NCBI GenBank assembly: GCA_964474655.1
Contig: CAYYTU010000004.1
Location: 2,563 to 66,562, forward strand
Source: an uncultured Anaerolineales bacterium
GTDB taxonomy: Bacteria; Chloroflexota; Anaerolineae; B4-G1
Direction: 5' to 3'
Length of the DNA: 64,000 nt
Position numbers and translations under genes: made by a program. Under the pieces are notes generated by a model. It searched no databases, was not told where the DNA came from, and saw only the letters and a list, made by a program, of their open reading frames with translations. Below are positions 4,715 through 60,227 of this stretch, piece after piece. The first letter of the stretch is position 1. Every line of letters begins with the position of its first letter.

Positions 4715-5728
4715 ATGAGCATCAATCAAGTGACGATTATTGAGACTACTCCGTTCAGTGTCTCCATCGCACTGAAGCTAAAGGAGGAGCATGAAGACCT
4801 GACGATCGTGGGGTATAGCGCCGAAGCCGCGGCGGGTGACCTGGTCCGCGCCCAGGGCGTGTTCGATCGCGTGGAACGAGAGCCAGGCCGGGCCTGTGAG
4901 GAAGCCGACATGGTCATTGTGACCACGCCCCTTGAGGCGATTCGAGAGATGTTCGGTGCTATCGCACCGCACCTCCGACCCGGCTGCCTGATCACAGACA
5001 CCGCCGCGCTTAAGGCCCCTGTGGCGCGCTGGGCTGAGGAGATTCTTCCTCAGAACGCCGAGTTCGTCGGCGGACACGTCCTGCTCAATCCGGTCACCGC
5101 CGACCGTTCCAGCTCCTCAGAGGAACCAGGCCCGGCCCGCGCCGATCTGCTGAAGCACGCGCTCTACTGCTTCACCCCTCTGCCAGAGACCTCCGCTGCC
5201 GCGCTCGATACCTGCTCCAACCTGGCCTGGACGCTGGAAGCCTACCCTTTCTTCATCGACGTCACCGAGCACGATGGTCTGGAGGCCGTTAAGGGCTTGA
5301 CCGAACTGGCAGCGGTGGCGTTGCTACGCTCCACCGTGGACTCCCCGGGTTGGCAAGAGATGCGAAAGTTCGCCGGCGAGCACTTCGCGACCACGACGGC
5401 CACGGTCGAGCGAGCCCGCGAGCGCCAGCAGGCGATCCTCCTCAACCGCGAGCATATCGCCCAGCGCATCGACGTGCTTGTGGAGGAGCTGATGCGCTTG
5501 CGGTCTCTGCTCGTCAGCAACGAGGCCGAGAAGCTGGCCGATGTCCTGCTCCAGGCCGCCGAGGGGCGCGAGCGCTGGGTCCAGGCGCGCCAACAAGGAA
5601 TGTGGGGCGATAAAGAGGCTTTCGATATGGAGAACGCGCCAGGTATGGGCGAAAGGTTTACCCGGATGGTCTTCGGCGGCCTCGGCGCCCGTCTGAAAAA
5701 AGCCGCCGGCCGCGATCAGGACGACTAG
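4715..5728 (+). CDS. Prephenate/arogenate dehydrogenase (TyrA) family protein with degenerate N-terminal dinucleotide-binding motif
   Basis: FVGGHVLLNP aligns with TyrA GGHPMAG. HDGLEAVKGLTELAAVALL aligns with TyrA HD...SHLPH. The N-terminus TIIETTPFSVSIALKL lacks a GxGxxG. Confidence 0.5.
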   Translation: MSINQVTIIETTPFSVSIALKLKEEHEDLTIVGYSAEAAAGDLVRAQGVFDRVEREPGRACEEADMVIVTTPLEAIREMFGAIAPHLRPGCLITDTAALKAPVARWAEEILPQNAEFVGGHVLLNPVTADRSSSSEEPGPARADLLKHALYCFTPLPETSAAALDTCSNLAWTLEAYPFFIDVTEHDGLEAVKGLTELAAVALLRSTVDSPGWQEMRKFAGEHFATTTATVERARERQQAILLNREHIAQRIDVLVEELMRLRSLLVSNEAEKLADVLLQAAEGRERWVQARQQGMWGDKEAFDMENAPGMGERFTRMVFGGLGARLKKAAGRDQDD

Positions 5729-26443: not shown

Positions 26444-26683
26444 ATGATGCCGCTTTACGAATACAAATGTTCCGATTGTGAGACGAAGTTCGACGCCCTG
26501 CGGGATATGTCCGAGGCCGATGCCCCGATTGCCTGTCCCCACTGCGGCAGCGAGGAGACGCAGCGGGCCGTCTCGCTCTTCTCCGCCATCGGCAGCGAGG
26601 GCGTTGTGATCGGCGACAATTCTTGCGCCTCCTGCTCGCCGTCGGCATCCTGCGCCACATGTGGAGCCCGCTCGTCGCATTAG
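26444..26683 (+). CDS. FmdB family zinc-ribbon protein
   Basis: MPLYEYKCSDCETKFDAL...CPHCGS, the canonical FmdB N-terminus, plus a Cys-rich tail. RBS CAGGAGGA. Confidence 0.8.
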   Translation: MMPLYEYKCSDCETKFDALRDMSEADAPIACPHCGSEETQRAVSLFSAIGSEGVVIGDNSCASCSPSASCATCGARSSH

Positions 26684-26730: not shown

Positions 26731-27846
26731 ATGACTGATCAGACCATAACATCGGTCTTCCCGTTTACGGCGATTGTGAACCAGGCGCGTATGAAACGCG
26801 CCCTGATCCTGAACGCGATCCACCCCAAAATCGGCGGCGTGCTGATCCGCGGCGAGCGCGGCACGGCTAAATCCACCGCGGCCCGGGCGCTGGCGGCCCT
26901 ATTGCCAGAAATCGAAGTGGTCGCCGATTGCTCCTTCGGTTGCGACCCCGATCGCCCTTCCACCTGGTGCACCGAATGTCAGGATCGCAGCCAGGGTGAG
27001 AACCCGTTACCACGCGCTCGCCGCCGCACCCAATTCGTGGATCTCCCCGTCAGCGCGACCGAGGACCGGGTCGTGGGCACGCTGGATATCGAGCGGGCCA
27101 TCCAGGAGGGCGAGCGACACTTCGAGCCGGGCGTGCTCGCCGCCGCCAATCGCGGCGTGCTCTACGTGGACGAGGTCAACCTGCTGGACGATCACGTCGT
27201 CGATCTGCTGCTCGACGCGGCCGCGATGGGCGTCAACGTGGTGGAGCGCGAGGGCATCTCCTTCAGCCATCCGGCCCGCTTCATCCTCATCGGCACGATG
27301 AACCCGGAGGAGGGCGATCTGCGCCCGCAGCTGCTCGACCGCTTCGCGCTCTGCGTCGACATTCGGGGTATTCGCGATCCCGACGCGCGAATGCTGATTA
27401 TGGAGCGGAACCTGGCCTTTGATGCGGACCCACAGGCCTTTCGCGCGGCCTGGGCCGGGCGCGAGCAGGAACTCTCCCGTGAGATCGCGCGGGCCCGGCA
27501 GCTGCTACCTGAGATGCAGCACACACGCTCGGATCTGGCTACCATCGCGACGATGATGGCCGATCTGGGCGTCGATGGGCATCGCGCCGATTTGGTGGTG
27601 CTCAAGGCCGCTCGGACGCACGCAGCGTTCGATGGGCGTCGGCACCTGACCGATACCGATATCCTGCTGGCGGCTGAACTGGCGTTGCCGCACCGGCTGA
27701 AGCGCCACCCGCTGGAGGAGACGGAGGTCACGCTAGATGATCTCTCTGAGCGGCTGAACGAAGTCCGCGCCCAGGCCCAGCGTAGCGAGCCGCACGAGGC
27801 AGAGAACAGTGAGCCGGTCGAGGTCGCCGGTAAAAAAAAAGCATAG
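26731..27846 (+). CDS. Mg-chelatase subunit I-like AAA+ ATPase (ChlI/BchI family)
   Basis: FPFTAIVNQARMKRALILNAIHPKIGGVLIRGERGTAKST (Walker A), Walker B VLYVDEVNLL. The ORF ends ...VAGKKKA* inside an A9 run. Confidence 0.9.
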   Translation: MTDQTITSVFPFTAIVNQARMKRALILNAIHPKIGGVLIRGERGTAKSTAARALAALLPEIEVVADCSFGCDPDRPSTWCTECQDRSQGENPLPRARRRTQFVDLPVSATEDRVVGTLDIERAIQEGERHFEPGVLAAANRGVLYVDEVNLLDDHVVDLLLDAAAMGVNVVEREGISFSHPARFILIGTMNPEEGDLRPQLLDRFALCVDIRGIRDPDARMLIMERNLAFDADPQAFRAAWAGREQELSREIARARQLLPEMQHTRSDLATIATMMADLGVDGHRADLVVLKAARTHAAFDGRRHLTDTDILLAAELALPHRLKRHPLEETEVTLDDLSERLNEVRAQAQRSEPHEAENSEPVEVAGKKKA

Positions 27847-27893
27847 CGGCCGATGACGCCGAGCAGGAGCCCTCGGCCGAACCCGAGCGGCCG

Positions 27894-28805
27894 ATGCAAA
27901 GTCCAGCCCAGCAGATCATCCCCCAGTGGCCGTCGTCGGGGCGTTGGTGGGAAGGCGGCGAGCAGACTGCCTTCGGCGAGCCCTTCGATCCTCGTCACCT
28001 GGAGACGCCCCTCGACCGCCTGACCCGCTCCACCGGCGGGCGCCGCAGCGAGACTCGCACCGATCGCAAACGCGGGCGCTACGTCCAATCGCGCCCCTCG
28101 CCGGACGATGCCAGCGACTTGGCCTTCGACGCCACGCTCCGCGCCGCCGCGCCCCACCAGAAAACACGCCAGGAAGATGGCGGCCCGGCCCTGGTGCTGT
28201 ACCCCGCCGACTTTCGCCGCAAGGTGCGCGTGAGCCGCGCGGCCAATCTGATCCTCTTCGTCGTCGATGCCTCCTGGTCGATGGCCGTGGCGGAGCGAAT
28301 GGAGGCCACGAAAGGCGCCGTCGTCTCGCTGCTGACCGACGCCTACCAGCGGCGCGACCGGGTGGGGCTGGTTGTCTTTCAGAAGAACGATGCGCTCGTG
28401 GTGCTGCCGCCCACCAATAGCGTCGCGCTGGCCAAGCGGACGCTGAACGATATCCCCATCGGCGGGAAGACGCCGCTTTCCGCTGGACTAAAAACCTCGT
28501 ACGAGCTCATCACCCGCGAGATCCGTCAACATCCCGATCTCAAGCCGCTGATGGTGCTGCTCACCGACGGAGCGGGCAATGTCTCAATGACAAACCGCCC
28601 GCCGCAGGAAGAGGCTTATCGCATGGCGGAGCTCTTCCCACAGGCCGACATCCGTTCGCTGGTGATCAATATGGAGAACGAGGCCTTCGATCAGGGGCTA
28701 GCGCAGACGTTGGCCGATCATCTGGAGGCGCCGTGCTACACGCTGGCCGACTTGCGGGCTGAGTCGCTGCTGTGGACGGTGCGCGGGGCGCTCGATGAGG
28801 GTTAA
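27894..28805 (+). CDS. ChlD/BchD C-terminal-half-like protein with vWA domain
   Basis: LAFDATLRAAAPHQ and LILFVVDASWSM (MIDAS DxSxS) match the ChlD linker and vWA. The same frame is open upstream through an acidic, Pro-rich stretch to the A9 tract at 27832-27840. Confidence 0.85.
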   Translation: MQSPAQQIIPQWPSSGRWWEGGEQTAFGEPFDPRHLETPLDRLTRSTGGRRSETRTDRKRGRYVQSRPSPDDASDLAFDATLRAAAPHQKTRQEDGGPALVLYPADFRRKVRVSRAANLILFVVDASWSMAVAERMEATKGAVVSLLTDAYQRRDRVGLVVFQKNDALVVLPPTNSVALAKRTLNDIPIGGKTPLSAGLKTSYELITREIRQHPDLKPLMVLLTDGAGNVSMTNRPPQEEAYRMAELFPQADIRSLVINMENEAFDQGLAQTLADHLEAPCYTLADLRAESLLWTVRGALDEG

Positions 28806-30268: not shown

Positions 30269-30493
30269 CAGAAACATACTCCTTTAACTAAAATGGTTTT
30301 ATGGGCTGGAGCGGCTAAGAGGGCAGCTACAAAACTACCCAGGTGATGCCAAGCCCAGGTAGCTTCACCACCACAACACTTACCGCTTCCTGCAATAAAA
30401 CTTTACCATGTGACGCTTCAGATGTCAAGCTAATTTCTTGAGGCGAGAGAGGAAACGATTGGCAGTGCGCGGTTCGTCAGGTATAATCTGCTT

Positions 30494-31469
30494 GATGGGT
30501 ATCTCGGTCGTCGCCACGGTGTTGAACGAAGCGCGAAGCTTACCCCGCTTGCTGGACAGCTTATCCGCCCAGATCCGCCAGCCGGACGAGGTGGTCATCT
30601 GTGACGGCGGCTCTACTGACGGCACGCTAGCGTTGCTGGAGGCCGAGGATCGCTTCCCGTTGCGTCTCATCAGCCGACCCGGGGCCAACATCTCACAGGG
30701 TCGCAACGCAGCCATCGCGGCTGCCAAAGGCGAGCTGATCGCAGTGACTGACGCCGGTGTGCGCCTAAGCTCCAACTGGCTGGACGCTCTCGTGACTCCG
30801 CTGGAAAATGACCAGGCGCAAGTGGTGGCCGGCTTCTTCCGGCCCGATCCGCATACCGTCTTTGAGGTCGCCATGGGGGCCACCGTGCTCCCCGAGATGC
30901 GCGATATTCGCCCGGAGCACTTCCTGCCCTCTAGTCGCTCCGTCGCTTTCCGGAAGGCCGCCTGGGTGGCCGTCGGCGGCTATCCTGAGTGGCTCGATTA
31001 TTGCGAGGATCTGATCTTCGATTTCCGCCTGCGCGATTGTTGCGGCCCCTTCGCCTTCGCGCCGGAAGCGTTGGCCTATTTCCGCCCCCGGCCCAGCCTG
31101 CGGGCATTCTTCGTCCAGTATTATCGCTACGCCCGCGGTGACGGCAAGGCCGATCTATGGCGCAAGCGTCATGCCATCCGCTACCTGACGTACCTGATCG
31201 CCACCCCGCTGATCGCCCTCGCCGGCCTGTTGAGGCACCCCGGGTGGTGGGCGCTCTATCTGATCGCCATTCCCGGTATGCTCTGGGTGCCCTGGCGGCG
31301 TCTGACGGGTCTCTGGGATGCTCTTCCTTCTGCGCAAAAGCTAAAGGCGGCGCTGTGGGTACCCGTGATCCGGGTCACGGGCGATGTAGCCAAGATGATC
31401 GGCTATCCGGCTGGTCTATGGTGGCGCTGGCGCCATCGGGACCAGGTGCCAGATTGGCGCGAGCTCTGA
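30494..31469 (+). CDS. Glycosyltransferase family 2 with C-terminal TM helices
   Basis: ISVVATVLNEARSLPRLLDSL...VVICDGGSTDGT (GT2 DxD-type). Start taken at MGISVV. Confidence 0.85.
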
Positions 31470-31471
31470 CG

Positions 31472-31984
31472 GTGAGCTGCTCGCTGAGCGAGCCAGAGGG
31501 GCCTATTTTGGTCAGCGCCTGCTTGTTGGGCATTCCGACGGCCTACAATGGCAGCGCTAACCTTTGCCAGCGCCTGCTGGATCCAGCAGCCCAAGGGCGT
31601 ATCCTACCGATCTGCCCCGAGGTAGCCGGTGGATTGTCGACGCCTCGTCCACCGGCCGAAATCGTCGGCGGTGACGGCGGTGACGTCCTGGATGGACGCG
31701 CCCGCGTGGTGACGATCGACGGAGTAGATATGACCGCAGCCTACGTGGAGGGAGCCCACATAGCGCTCGCAACGACGCAGAGGTACAGCATACAGATGGC
31801 CATTCTCAAGCAGCGTAGCCCCTCGTGCGGCAGCTCGCACATCTACGACGGCACCCACAGCGATCGTCTGGTGCCTGGTCAGGGCGTCGCGGCTGCGCTC
31901 TTGCGACGATACGGTGTGACCGTGAAGGGTGGGGATGGCGTGAGGTATCACCCCCGCTCCGGTTCCAGCGGCAATGAGATGTAG
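31472..31984 (+). CDS. DUF523 (TudS/YbbK-like) family protein
   Basis: ILVSACLLGIPTAYNG...ICPEVAGGLSTPRPPAEI...SPSCGSSHIYDG. GTG start 2 nt after the GT2 stop. The track ORF beginning at 31157 overlaps GT2 out of frame and is rejected. Confidence 0.75.
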   Translation: MSCSLSEPEGPILVSACLLGIPTAYNGSANLCQRLLDPAAQGRILPICPEVAGGLSTPRPPAEIVGGDGGDVLDGRARVVTIDGVDMTAAYVEGAHIALATTQRYSIQMAILKQRSPSCGSSHIYDGTHSDRLVPGQGVAAALLRRYGVTVKGGDGVRYHPRSGSSGNEM

Positions 31985-56653: not shown

Positions 56654-57895
56654 CTAGGACAGAAGCGGCGAGAGCAATAGGGCGATCATCGCCATGCCGA
56701 TCAGACCGGTCAGGCCCCAGGCGAGGGCGTTTTGAAAACGAGAGTTGGTCCACTCATTCATCACTTGCTGATCGTTGACGATCTTCAGCACCAGGACCAG
56801 CAGCACCGGCAGCAAGATAGCGTTCAGCGACTGGGAGAGCCACATCAGCGGGAAGAGCGGCAATCCGGGGATGAGCACCACCAGCACGCTGAGAACGATG
56901 ATGCTGCCGTACAGGCCGTAGAAGATAGGGGCCTCGGAGGCGCGATTGTCCAGCCCGCGCTCCCAGCCGAAGGCCTCGCAGAGCGCGTAAGTGGTGGAAA
57001 GGGGCAGTACCGAGGCCGCCAGCAGCGAGGCGCCCAGCAGCCCGGCGGAGAAGAGATAGCGCGCCCACGGGCCCACCAACGGCTCCAGGGCCAGGGCGGC
57101 CTGCTCGGCGCTTTCCACCCGTACGCCGTGGACGTAGAGTGCGGCCGCGGTGCAGATTACGATGAAGGCCGAGACCACGTTACCCCAGGCCGCGCCGCCC
57201 ATCACGTCTATCTTGGTATAGCGATAGTGCTCCATCGTGATCCCCTTATCGGCCACGGAGGCCTGCATATAGACGAAGGCCCAGGGCGTGATAGTGGTGC
57301 CTATGGTGGCCAGCACCGCCAGGATGTAGTTGGGATCGCTCCTGAAGGTGGGCACGAGGGCGTTGCGCAGCACGTCGCCCCAGGCTGGCCCGATGGCGAA
57401 GGCGGTGACGATGTAGCTGAGCGCCGAGAGGCAGAGCACCAGCAGAATTTTCTCCACGCGCTTGTACGATCCTCGAAGCACCACATAGGACACGCCCAGC
57501 GCGGCCAGGGGCACGGCGACGTAGCGGCTGAGGCCCAAAAGCTCCATGCCCGCCGCAATGCCGGCAAACTGGGCCACGGTGGTGCCCAGGTTCGCCAGCA
57601 GCAGGGAGAACATGGCGAAGGTCGTTATGCGCACCCCGAACTGCTCGCGGATCAGGTCGGCGGCCCCCTTGCCGGTCACCGCGCCCATGCGGGCGGCGAT
57701 CTCCTGGATGATGATTTCGCCCACGGTGACCAACACGATCAGCCACAGGAAACGATAGCCATACGTAGAGCCGGCCATCGAGTAGGTGGCGATGCCAGGG
57801 GCGTCGTTATCGGCGCTGGCGGTGATCAAGCCGGGGCCGAGGATGCTCAGGTAGAAGCCGATGCGGCGCAGCCAGTTCTGTAGTCGAAATTTCAT
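56654..57895 (-). CDS. mntH: NRAMP-family divalent metal (Mn2+/Fe2+) transporter
   Basis: Eleven or so TM helices. The N-terminal GPGLITASADNDAPGIATY aligns with the Nramp DPGN region. Confidence 0.9.
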   Translation of the reverse strand: MKFRLQNWLRRIGFYLSILGPGLITASADNDAPGIATYSMAGSTYGYRFLWLIVLVTVGEIIIQEIAARMGAVTGKGAADLIREQFGVRITTFAMFSLLLANLGTTVAQFAGIAAGMELLGLSRYVAVPLAALGVSYVVLRGSYKRVEKILLVLCLSALSYIVTAFAIGPAWGDVLRNALVPTFRSDPNYILAVLATIGTTITPWAFVYMQASVADKGITMEHYRYTKIDVMGGAAWGNVVSAFIVICTAAALYVHGVRVESAEQAALALEPLVGPWARYLFSAGLLGASLLAASVLPLSTTYALCEAFGWERGLDNRASEAPIFYGLYGSIIVLSVLVVLIPGLPLFPLMWLSQSLNAILLPVLLVLVLKIVNDQQVMNEWTNSRFQNALAWGLTGLIGMAMIALLLSPLLS

Positions 57896-57913: not shown

Positions 57914-59176
57914 TCAGAAAAAGCGGGGGATGCGTTTCTTCCAGGCCGTGGGCAGCACGGCGTCGATGGCGTCGTCCACGGTCACGATGCCCAGCAACTC
58001 GGCGCTCTCCTCGTCCACCACGGGGACGGCCAGCAGATCGTACTTGGCAACCAGATAAGCTACTTCCTCCTGGGAGGTGTAAGGAGTGACTGTGACGGGC
58101 TCCTTCTCGCTCCACTCGTCCAGCGGGGCATCCAGGGGCGCCATGACGAGGTCCCGCAGGCTGATAATGCCGTAGAGGCGTCTTTCCTCGTCGGTCAGGT
58201 AGACGTAGGGCATCACCTCGTCCTCCTGGGCCTCCCGTGAATGGCGCAGGTAGTCGAGGGCCTCGCCAACAGTTAGCTGGTGGGGGACGCGCACGAACTC
58301 GGTGGTCATAATCCCGCCGGCCGAGTCGACCGGGTAGCGCAGGAGGTCCTGCACGTCCTCGGCGTCCTCCTCCTCCATCAGGCTCAGCAGTTCCGCGCTG
58401 GCCTGATCGGATAGGCCGGCCAGCAGATCGGCGGCCTCATCGGGATCCATCTCCTCCAGGATGTCGGCGGCTCGTTCCGGAGGCATGTGCGAGAGCACGC
58501 TGACCTGCATATCCATCGGGCTCTCCTCCAGCGTGTCGGCCAGCGCCTCGTCGCTCAATGTGGTGACCAGCGCCTCGGAGGTATGACGATCCAGGTCGTT
58601 GAGAATGGCGGCGATGTCGGCCGGAGGCAGGCGGGTGATCTTCTCGCGCGAGACCTGGAGGCGCAGCGGTTCGTCCTGGTGCAGCGGGGCCACGTCCTCC
58701 CAGGGGATGACGCCGGAGGGCAGGGATCGTCCCAGTTTGTTGGCAACAGTGCGCACCGGCTTTTCCAGCCCCAGGCGTCGCAGGAGCCCCAGCCCGCCCA
58801 CGTCCACGCCGGTGAGACAGAACTGATCGCGCACCCGCATCATCTGGAGGTCGTTCACCCGTACCACGCGACGTCCCTCGGTGTCCACGATCTGGCGATC
58901 CAGAACCTGATCGAGCAGCCAGAGTTCGTCGCCCTGCGGCTCATAAGTCCGAATCTCGTTCTGGGGAATCTTCAGGTTGATGGTGGGGTAGAGGGCACTG
59001 ACCTGGTCGGCGGGGATGAAGTGTGTCTCGGAATCGCCATCGCGCATAGCCAGCGCCCGCAGAGGGGGATAGGGCTGACCAGGAGCCCCAACCAGGACGT
59101 CGATACACTTTCCGACCGGCAAGCTCCAGGCATCCCAGATCTGCTTATCCTGCAATTGACTTACGTACAGCATCAT
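57914..59176 (-). CDS. Soluble MgtE-N + tandem CBS domain protein (MgtE cytoplasmic module without the transporter TM domain), with N-terminal PRC-barrel-like region
   Basis: MgtE_N acidic helices (LSDEALADTLEESPMDMQVSVLSHMPPERAADILEEMDPDEAADLLAGL) and a CBS pair. Ends ...WKKRIPRFF with no TM segment. Start at MMLYVSQ. Confidence 0.7.
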   Translation of the reverse strand: MMLYVSQLQDKQIWDAWSLPVGKCIDVLVGAPGQPYPPLRALAMRDGDSETHFIPADQVSALYPTINLKIPQNEIRTYEPQGDELWLLDQVLDRQIVDTEGRRVVRVNDLQMMRVRDQFCLTGVDVGGLGLLRRLGLEKPVRTVANKLGRSLPSGVIPWEDVAPLHQDEPLRLQVSREKITRLPPADIAAILNDLDRHTSEALVTTLSDEALADTLEESPMDMQVSVLSHMPPERAADILEEMDPDEAADLLAGLSDQASAELLSLMEEEDAEDVQDLLRYPVDSAGGIMTTEFVRVPHQLTVGEALDYLRHSREAQEDEVMPYVYLTDEERRLYGIISLRDLVMAPLDAPLDEWSEKEPVTVTPYTSQEEVAYLVAKYDLLAVPVVDEESAELLGIVTVDDAIDAVLPTAWKKRIPRFF

Positions 59177-60227
59177 CGCCTCCTTGGTCTTGTGGCATCT
59201 TTTGAGCCGGAAAGCAGCCGACACGCAAAAAGGCCGCAGAATGAACTGTGGCCTTGACCATACCAGACCTCAGAGGCCAGGCGCTTAGATCATTCCACGG
59301 ATGTGTCCGCAGAACTGCCTTCACAAGATGGTCTCTCGGATTGTTCGTCCATATAAACGCATGTAACGAGACCGGCCCGATTCGTCCAGCCGTGAGCCAG
59401 GGGTTTAGGGATGCGCGTGACTTGGTGGTCTGCTTATCTTCTTTAGCAGCCCGCACTCGATCATAGACCGCCTGACCGACGACGCCGTCACGCACAATAT
59501 CCACGCGCTGACGCGGCATCCCCTCGAAGTCGAAGGACGGGGGTCAACCCGCAGGATCGAGCCCATCGTCCCAGATAGCGATCAACGGCGATAACAGCTG
59601 CTTCCCCGACGATCATTCATCCAACTCTTGCCCTCCTGTAGGGCATTAACACTAGCATAAAATGTAATAACCTGCAATATGTCGTGTACTACATCAGGTA
59701 GACGTCGGGAGCAACAGGCTGCGGGTTGCGGCTGCGCAGGGCCCGGTCGATAGCCTCTTTGCCGCGGGCCAGGCGAGCTCACTCGGCGGGGCTGTAGCCG
59801 GCGGTGGTCTCATCGAAAGCTGTGATGCGGGGCGGCTCGGTGGGCGCCGGCAAACCGGGGAAGTCCGGATCCTCCGGACGGTGTCGGGCGGTTGTGGTCG
59901 CTGCCTCGACTACGCCTCCAGCCCAGTCTCGGTCAGGTCGTTGGACGTAGCCACGCCCACCCGCTGGCCCAGGGCAGCGCGCACGACCAGGTGGTGATTC
60001 GCTCCCGCCACGTGCTGATGGATGGCGTTGTTGGCGAAGCGCATCAGCTGCTCGTCCAGCCCCAACAGCACTGCCTCGGTCTCATCGGCAGACGAGAGAG
60101 CAAGGGTTTGTTGGAGCAGCGCCTTCGTTCGGCTATGACCTAGCATTGGTATCTCCTGGTATGAGTCACAAAACGTAACGCCTATCGCGTATGGCGTAAA
60201 ACGTGTTGCATCCTCTCGACGTTTCAC
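59145..60227 (-). pseudogene. Degraded TldD/PmbA-family metallopeptidase gene (fragments in at least two frames)
   Basis: 59910..60227 encodes ...LMRFANNAIHQHVAGANHHLVVRAALGQRVGVATSNDL (PmbA/TldD N-terminal pattern). After an in-frame TAG the neighbouring frame continues AVVEAATTARHRPEDPDFPGLPAP... The ORF 59145..59519 carries DIVRDGVVGQAVYDRVRAAK, a C-terminal-like segment. Confidence 0.45.

Follow-up and report, generated by a model that had tools for sequence, protein, structure and literature searches.

A conserved run of nine adenines points to a recoded, two-product chlD-type gene in Anaerolineales

When an ATPase gene ends in a run of nine adenines and a second reading frame opens inside that run, are the two frames two genes, one damaged gene or one gene with two products? 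The question is raised by a 64,000-nucleotide stretch of DNA from an uncultured Anaerolineales bacterium (contig CAYYTU010000004.1 of assembly GCA_964474655.1; hereafter the window), in which two open reading frames (ORFs) joined by a -1 shift form a chlD-type coding unit at 26731-28805 on the + strand, with a conceptual product of 691 aa. An earlier note on this DNA had offered two explanations: a programmed recoding site, or an indel, from sequencing or natural, that splits a single gene in a homopolymer. We consider it very likely that the locus is one chlD-type gene that yields two products by programmed slippage at the run of nine A's (A9), and that it belongs to the fs-chlD family of recoded genes.

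The first ORF, in the zero frame (26731-27846; all features of the gene lie on the + strand), encodes a ChlI-type AAA+ ATPase of 371 aa with the C-terminus ...VAGKKKA. Direct reading of its 3' end gives GGT AAA AAA AAA GCA TAG with exactly nine A's at 27832-27840, as the earlier note had it; this homopolymer is the putative slip site, and the in-phase heptamer A_AAA_AAA lies inside it. The zero-frame stop of the short product, a TAG at 27844-27846, stands one codon past the run and overlaps the [IV]-A codons of the vWA frame. Upstream, the vWA frame, which is the -1 frame, is closed by a TAA at 27831-27833 that consists of the T preceding the run and the first A's. From 27834 it is free of stops to the TAA at 28803-28805 and reads KK-SIAADDAEQEPSAEPERPMQSPAQQ... 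(also given as KK-SIAADDAEQEPSAEPERPMQSPAQQIIPQWPSSGRWWEGG...), so that the open passage from the run through an acidic linker to the metal-ion-dependent adhesion site (MIDAS) of the vWA domain, claimed from the letters alone, is there. The only place where a shift can join both frames is 27834-27843, within and just after the A9 run; this frame overlap measures 10 nt in the window and likewise in many split-type orthologs. The remaining, +1 frame ends at a TGA (27854-27856) four codons past the run. At a G+C content of 60%, the window holds no other run of eight or more A's or T's, about 0.05 A9 runs per strand would be expected by chance, and AAA makes up only 33% of the Lys codons among the window genes. 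The A9 run is not a chance feature of this DNA.

An ortholog scan with one genome per species returned 80 loci, all from Chloroflexota and mostly from Anaerolineae/Anaerolineales metagenome-assembled genomes, with vWA halves 61-78% identical to that of the window. Both halves are held by 77 of these loci, or 78 counting the window, and 73 orthologs entered the tree and the motif alignment. In 45 of the 77 loci the vWA half lies in the -1 frame, as it does in the window (46 of 78 with the window; hereafter split genes), and in the other 32 the ORF is continuous (fused genes). A poly-A run of at least seven is kept in 76 of the 78 loci, as A9 in 69, A10 in six and A7 in one; it is present in all 46 split genes and in 30 of the 32 fused genes. 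Depending on the locus, the run occupies codon phase 0, 1 or 2, and encodes KKK, EKKT or VKKK. Because it occurs in all three codon phases, the entity conserved at the junction is, on this comparison, the nucleotide run and not the KKK peptide. Whatever the phase, the run amounts to at least a heptamer plus two further A's in 75 of 76 loci, and an in-phase A_AAA_AAA is present in every ortholog that carries it. Across 832 kb of ortholog loci there are 75 A or T runs of nine or more, every one of them on the sense strand at the ChlI/vWA junction. The two loci that have no run, L018 (5960-6010, ggtaagcgggag) and L036 (1430-1510, gggaaaaagaagccc), both carry a continuous ORF. None of the 46 split genes is without a run, which would be expected if the vWA half of a split gene depends on it. 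One ortholog, L072, shows a further frame break in its ChlI half (5465-5532, where tblastn segments switch from frame 1 to frame 2), probably through an assembly error or because the copy is decaying.

Past the run, the -1 frame encodes the acidic, Pro-rich linker SIAADDAEQEPSAEPERPMQSPAQQI (27840-27917). In split genes this linker is homologous to the zero-frame linker of fused orthologs: the window sequence SIAADDAEQEPSAEPERPMQSP aligns with EVATEAPDDDASAERSRPMQSP of L005, and SVAGETGDEESPHEQREVAREP of L004 with GVSGETDDEQPPPDRSEVMREP of L006. When the 18 codons past the run were scored against the fused linkers, the vWA frame was the best of the three in 45 of 46 split genes, with a mean score of 39 against 20 for each other frame. 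This conservation indicates that translation of the -1 frame begins at the run.

The protein family is consistent with such a joined product. By Pfam, the first ORF contains AAA_lid_2, Mg_chelatase and AAA_5, and the second contains VWA_2 and VWA. The 691-aa fusion reaches 797.0 bits against the NCBIfam model TIGR02442 "putative cobaltochelatase", covering model positions 1-640 of 641, where the curated cutoff is 779.45 bits; taken separately, the first ORF, which aligns through residues 1-345, scores 515 bits and the second 268 bits, both below the cutoff. Residues 5-331 match the solved ChlI/BchI structures 6l8d, 8osf and 1g8p (lowest E for the ChlI 6l8d, 2e-103), and residues 506-646 match the BchD integrin-I domain 2x31_A (E = 1e-19). 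Because the fusion matches TIGR02442 end to end and both halves match solved ChlI/BchI and BchD structures, 26731-28805 is, by homology, a single ChlD-type coding unit. The earlier note had read the two ORFs as one hidden unit with the architecture of a full-length ChlD/BchD, and both the linker and the full-length match bear this out. Scores against the equivalog models of the chlorophyll-type subunits stay below their cutoffs, at 444.5 against 499.55 bits for TIGR02031 (BchD/ChlD) and 431.4 against 466.95 bits for TIGR02030 (BchI/ChlI). Judged by these models, the product is akin to BchD/ChlD and BchI/ChlI, yet not a member of either.

The catalytic motifs of both halves are intact. In the ChlI-type ORF these are Walker A GERGTAKST (26851-26877), Walker B VLYVDEVN (27157-27180), the Arg-finger region (27322-27345) and sensor 2 (27577-27597). 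The ChlD-type C-terminal region in the -1 frame (27918-28805; Pfam VWA_2 and VWA, TIGR02442 positions 386-640) holds a conserved IPQWPSxGRWWEGG motif, the conserved ChlD-type motif LAFDATLRAAAPHQ (28119-28160) and, in the vWA/integrin-I domain, MIDAS DASWS (28266-28280, within FVVDASWSM), GGKTPL (28461-28478) and LLTDGAGN (28557-28580). Across the 73 aligned orthologs, the AAA+ motifs GERGT[A/G]KST (Walker A), DE (Walker B), NPEEG, RPQLLDRF and GHRxD are invariant, as are DASWS, GGKTPL and TDG of the vWA domain, and both halves are, as this alignment indicates, under purifying selection. The Walker A motif of the window has Ala in place of a consensus Gly (P-loop GxxxxGK[ST]), and the same position is Ala in 62 of the 73 orthologs and Gly in 11. 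The lone AAA+ module has to serve both products, and the effect of this Ala on ATPase activity could be interesting.

What separates split from fused genes is an indel in the spacer between the run and a conserved TAG, not the length of the run. The run is A9 in 40 of 46 split genes, the window included, and in 29 of the 30 run-bearing fused genes. The window, for example, reads A9-GCA-TAG, and the fused L002 reads A9-GGGG-TAG with the run retained at the same place (GGT AAA AAA AAA GGG GTA GGG). When the concatenated halves of 73 taxa were placed on a neighbour-joining tree, which is approximate, parsimony required at least 12 switches between the two states. A deep Promineifilaceae/Ardenticatenaceae-like group is uniformly split, and the window's own group is mixed, with closest relatives of both kinds; on this tree, the state is clade-structured and not random. 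The earlier note had expected single-ORF orthologs to favour a simple homopolymer error. Such orthologs do exist, 32 of them, but 30 keep the run, 29 at exactly A9, and differ by the spacer indel. Because the run is kept and the difference lies in the spacer, they strengthen the case for recoding instead.

Both frames that do not lead into the vWA domain close early. In split genes the zero-frame stop follows 0-16 codons past the run (0-3 codons in 41 of 46) and is nearly always TAG, and the +1 frame closes at a median of 4 codons. In fused genes the -1 frame closes 3-17 codons past the run, always at a TGA bar one TAA, and the +1 frame closes within 0-2 codons in 21 of 30, at the same TAG as in split genes. 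In split and in fused genes alike the medians are 1 and 4-6 codons, compared with median values of 22-32 codons at random positions of the same genes. No conserved stimulatory RNA element was found alongside this layout. In the window, the 90 nt past the run are no more stably folded than shuffled sequence (z = -0.82), and no conserved downstream structure was found over 76 loci (mean z = -0.54; 14% fall below -2, mostly in a distant subclade). No hairpin was consistently found at the canonical spacing of 5-9 nt in the window and these loci, and upstream Shine-Dalgarno (SD)-like tetramers are spread from -25 to -4 without a strong positional peak and are absent from 30 of the 76 loci.

We propose that one promoter serves the whole unit at 26731-28805 and that programmed slippage at A9 yields two proteins from it. 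Unslipped expression would stop at the TAG at 27844 and give the 371-aa ChlI-type AAA+ ATPase, equivalent to a small subunit, and a net -1 change of frame in the run would give a 691-aa protein of AAA+ module, acidic linker and vWA/MIDAS domain, equivalent to a medium subunit. As the main route, RNA polymerase would slip on the T9 template and add one A, producing A10 mRNA in a substantial fraction of transcripts, which would then be translated normally into the long form. Transcripts with A8 or A11 (net +1) would still give the short form, because the third frame stops after four codons; from fused genes, A10 or A11 transcripts would give short forms. Ribosomal -1 slippage on A_AAA_AAA may contribute. 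The analysis establishes the anatomy of the locus, the conservation of the run as nucleotides, the coding of the linker in the -1 frame and the intact motifs; we infer that both products are made, and in what ratio, and that the polymerase and not the ribosome slips.

The earlier note had named both ribosomal and transcriptional slippage, and we lean towards the transcriptional kind on comparative grounds. It is favoured because no conserved stimulator was found, because 75 of 76 runs carry at least two extra A's and because the default frame is not conserved. It is favoured, too, because the run is kept in split and fused genes with both non-vWA frames closing early, which is the layout of Thermus dnaX, and because reporter efficiency in homologous cassettes rose with run length. 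In E. coli reporters of chelatase cassettes, 7, 9 and 11 A's gave 10, 40 and 63% frameshifting (Antonov et al. 2013, PMC3711429); the same authors use a non-conserved default frame to infer transcriptional realignment in transposases. At a length of nine A's, bacterial RNA polymerase slips efficiently (Atkins et al. 2016, PMC5009743). The full statement, a recoded two-product chlD-type gene with RNA polymerase slippage as its main route, would on present sequence comparisons stand at about even chances.

The strongest rival is a -1 programmed ribosomal frameshift, in which a pair of Lys-tRNAs on A_AAA_AAA moves back by one base, with greater efficiency owing to the long run and the near stop. 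We regard this as possible, at clearly less than even chances. Several observations weigh against polymerase slippage and for the ribosome. A9 always holds an in-phase A_AAA_AAA, as does every phase variant of the run, and by sequence alone ribosomal -1 slippage is equally possible; the junction peptide, GKKKSIAADD, is identical for the two routes. The split ortholog L055 retains A7 only, which is exactly the in-phase heptamer, and polymerase slippage should be weak there. The zero-frame stop lies close behind the run in most split genes (the 41 of 46 given above). In loci L058-L080, which form a Promineifilaceae/Ardenticatenaceae-like subclade, the sequence about 25-60 nt 3' of the run folds into a stable hairpin, GGGGCC(G)...(C)GGCCCC (L059:5995-6055 and L062:6004-6064 are examples), and z falls as low as -4.7. 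Passages on the fs-chlD family in the literature call the event ribosomal frameshifting (PMC9227772, PMC5009743), and the reporter assays of homologous chelatase cassettes were framed that way. Two points weigh against the main reading more generally: the +1-frame TAG of fused genes may have been left over from recent switches without being selected, and counts across ortholog loci are not phylogenetically independent.

Other evidence speaks against the ribosome as the main agent. In the window's subclade there is neither a conserved structure at 5-9 nt nor a positioned SD-like element, and the hairpin of L058-L080 is absent from it; that hairpin begins further from the run than a classical frameshift stimulator and may be a by-product of a conserved G-A-E...E-A-G-P peptide. 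In any phase, 75 of 76 loci keep two more A's than the heptamer needs, and the default frame has flipped at least 12 times with the run kept and with near stops in both alternative frames; a strictly -1 mechanism needs neither the flips nor the second stop. The reporter assays, as described in the sections of PMC3711429 concerned with them, do not tell polymerase from ribosomal slippage.

A second explanation is that these are two ordinary neighbouring genes, a ChlI-type ATPase and a vWA protein starting from an ATG at 27894, possibly translationally coupled, with the run incidental. That ATG sits in the linker, an annotator would choose it as the start of a second gene, and mechanical ORF calling yields a 303-aa ORF from it; split ChlI and ChlD gene pairs are also known in other phyla (Kuznetsov 2022, PMC9227772). 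However, the stretch from the run to the ATG is conserved at protein level in the vWA frame in all but one of the split genes and is homologous to the fused linker. The Met encoded at 27894 is not conserved among the aligned orthologs, and no conserved independent vWA start was found in the 46 split genes: 18 of them lack ATG, GTG and TTG altogether from the run up to the conserved PxW motif, and just four have a start in that stretch preceded by an SD-like motif. A vWA-only product would be left without the AAA+ module that defines ChlD, as its 268 bits against a cutoff of 779 for TIGR02442 illustrate, and an incidental run would not be expected in 46 of 46 split genes. We judge this explanation very improbable.

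More improbable still is an artefact or decay, that is, a miscounted homopolymer (true length A10) or a frameshift mutation leading to a pseudogene: homopolymers are error-prone and one extra A would restore a single ORF, but 45 other genomes from many independent assemblies show the same -1 arrangement, split genes mostly carry A9, fused orthologs carry A9 too and differ in the spacer, the catalytic motifs of both halves are invariant in 73 orthologs and the state is clade-structured. The exact window protein, sought in independent assemblies of the same organism as a check on run length, is not on record. We reject the two-gene, pseudogene and assembly-error readings because the linker is conserved in the -1 frame, starts are not conserved and the motifs are invariant; of the two alternatives in the earlier note, the sequencing or indel error falls away, and programmed recoding, now with 45 other genomes sharing the arrangement and the run and with a recoding family that has published reporter data, is the one that stands. 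Equally far-fetched is heritable phase variation, in which replication slippage would alter the run length and switch genes between split and fused: A9 is slippery for DNA polymerase too and both states occur among relatives, but run length does not track state (A9 in 40/46 split and 29/30 fused genes) and a 1-nt spacer indel sets the frame, no near-identical fused variant of the window gene was found in the protein database (best match 79% identical), and no slipped-type KKK-S-[IV]-A junction occurs among the database proteins, an absence that is uninformative on transcript heterogeneity. All 120 top database matches are fused proteins of 650-768 aa, and 117 of them have KK or KKK at the junction.

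Programmed slippage at A9 would place the gene among known relatives. Recoding is already known for the chlD family, including in this bacterial class, and the window gene is a further Chloroflexota example. The sections of Antonov et al. 2013 (PMC3711429) on magnesium chelatases describe a cluster of "fs-genes" in which poly-A is the site of a -1 shift; each is annotated as a pair of adjacent genes, fused homologs occur elsewhere, and the cluster covers Pseudomonas, Burkholderia, Delftia, Herpetosiphon (Chloroflexi), Methanocaldococcus and Methanococcus. Atkins et al. 2016 (PMC5009743) include a section on the frameshifted chlD family. In the passages on fs-chlD by Kuznetsov, Milenkin and Antonov 2022 (PMC9227772), who cite Antonov 2020, the gene gives small and medium subunits from one locus and is listed in Anaerolineae (Brevefilum fermentans, Anaerolinea thermophila, Levilinea, Longilinea and Ornatilinea) and in Spirochaeta thermophila. 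Some of these "stage 1" genomes are described there as having neither chlorophyll or B12 pathways nor a large subunit, with the function stated as unknown. The genotype of the window agrees with the "stage 1" Anaerolineae as published in those passages, and the closest orthologs of the window gene come from the same phylum and class as these.

The likeness to the fs-chlD family extends to a ChlI-like AAA+ ORF overlapped in the -1 frame by a ChlD linker and vWA ORF, a poly-A/A_AAA_AAR shift site in the overlap, fused homologs, a two-gene annotation and conservation of the shift site beyond the protein requirement (76/78 loci, three codon phases). There are also differences. Most of the published cases come from cobalamin producers that have cobN (Pseudomonas, Burkholderia, Delftia and methanogens), whereas no cobN was found in the window or within 6 kb of the 80 orthologs, and a potential downstream structure is usual in them, though not obligatory, whereas none is conserved here. 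In its fs-chlD passages, PMC9227772 treats the signal as ribosomal frameshifting and the loss of frameshifting as following chlI duplication, and these passages describe neither a run retained where the ORF is continuous nor a default frame that switches again and again. The run kept in continuous-ORF orthologs, the repeated default switching and the close stops in both other frames may go beyond the published accounts cited here, and they fit a frame-agnostic, probably transcriptional, slippage switch.

The closest mechanistic parallel is dnaX of Thermus thermophilus, whose tau and gamma result from transcriptional slippage at an A9 run (Larsen et al. 2000, summarized in PMC5009743). As there, the gene family described here has a sense-strand run of A9-A10 (75 of 76 runs are nine or longer) and near stops in both alternative frames. 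As in Thermus dnaX and the two-ORF dnaX of Chlorobi, the short and the long product have an N-terminal ATPase module in common and, here by inference, would assemble together, and relatives differ in which product is in the zero frame (for Chlorobi, the section on this gene in Antonov 2013, PMC3711429). The protein family and complex are unrelated to those of Thermus dnaX, and slipped transcripts, demonstrated for dnaX, are proposed here from sequence. E. coli dnaX uses a -1 ribosomal frameshift at A_AAA_AAG with an upstream SD sequence and a downstream hairpin. It resembles the window gene in its in-phase Lys-codon slippery heptamer (X_XXY_YYZ) and in making a short and a long product from one gene, but it has seven slippery bases ending in G and two stimulators, where the window gene has nine A's and no conserved stimulator was detected.

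The surroundings of the gene say little about a chelatase. The window is a housekeeping chromosomal region with genes for PriA, a Clp ATPase, GyrB, glycosyltransferases, an aminotransferase, a small Zn-ribbon protein, an SDR, a cold-shock protein, DnaK, HtrA, NAPRTase and Nramp. TIGR02442 proteins work with a CobN large subunit, and their gene usually lies near cobN or B12 genes (see Rodionov 2003, as cited in work on fs-chlD). No such neighbourhood was found at the window locus or near the 80 orthologs. The statement in the earlier note that no chlH or cobN lies nearby holds for the full 64-kb window, where no ORF exceeds 852 aa, none carries a CobN domain and the two largest encode PriA and the Clp ATPase. 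A CobN-type domain is likewise absent from the eight largest ORFs (904-1124 aa) within 6 kb of the 80 orthologs; large ORFs near the orthologs encode TPR/Wzy and PMT_2 proteins, PBP1, histidine kinases, a DNA methylase and others. An Rfam scan of the window and six loci gave no match at gathering score, hence no cobalamin riboswitch, and over the entire 64-kb window no Rfam family (no tRNA, riboswitch or other known RNA) reached that score. No second chlI copy was found within the window, and no conserved neighbour emerged, for no family flanks the gene in over 15 of the 78 loci. As the ChlI/ChlD and BchI/BchD pairs suggest, the two products probably come together in a mixed AAA+/vWA complex.

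Three further features of the window were recorded. A small Zn-ribbon gene (Zn_ribbon_8, FmdB-like) at 26444-26683 precedes the chlD-type gene by 47 nt in the same orientation; the Zn-ribbon gene is found in 19 of the 80 loci, all close relatives, and its adjacency is probably local synteny only. An Nramp-family transporter gene (56654-57895, - strand) directly adjoins a gene (57914-59224, - strand) whose protein has MgtE_N and CBS domains and lacks the MgtE membrane domain, and the two may form a regulator-transporter pair for divalent metals. A 275-aa ORF at 31157-31984 overlaps the 3' end of a glycosyltransferase gene (30438-31469) by about 310 nt in another frame and has no tblastn counterpart in the 80 loci.

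For annotation, the two called ORFs should be joined as a single recoded chlD-type gene that has two products; left apart, the vWA half seems an orphan and the medium subunit seems to be missing. With this locus, a recoding family that governs the proportion of two co-assembling subunits gains a well-supported Chloroflexota case. The run in split and fused genes, the repeated flips of the default frame and the early stops also provide a basis for a cheap, family-wide test of polymerase against ribosomal slippage. With no large subunit or tetrapyrrole gene nearby, the window repeats the published puzzle of what a ChlI/ChlD-like pair does in such genomes. Tentatively, and with a little less than even confidence, we suggest that, in this clade centred on Anaerolineae, transcriptional slippage may make the A9 run a frame-agnostic switch that supplies the short ATPase and the long ATPase-vWA protein no matter which of them is in the zero frame, its default flipped at least 12 times by 1-nt spacer indels with the run and the stops in both other frames retained, and that the ChlI/ChlD-like pair works without a CobN/ChlH-type large subunit. 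If this is true, such a pair would have a function other than that of the known chelatases.

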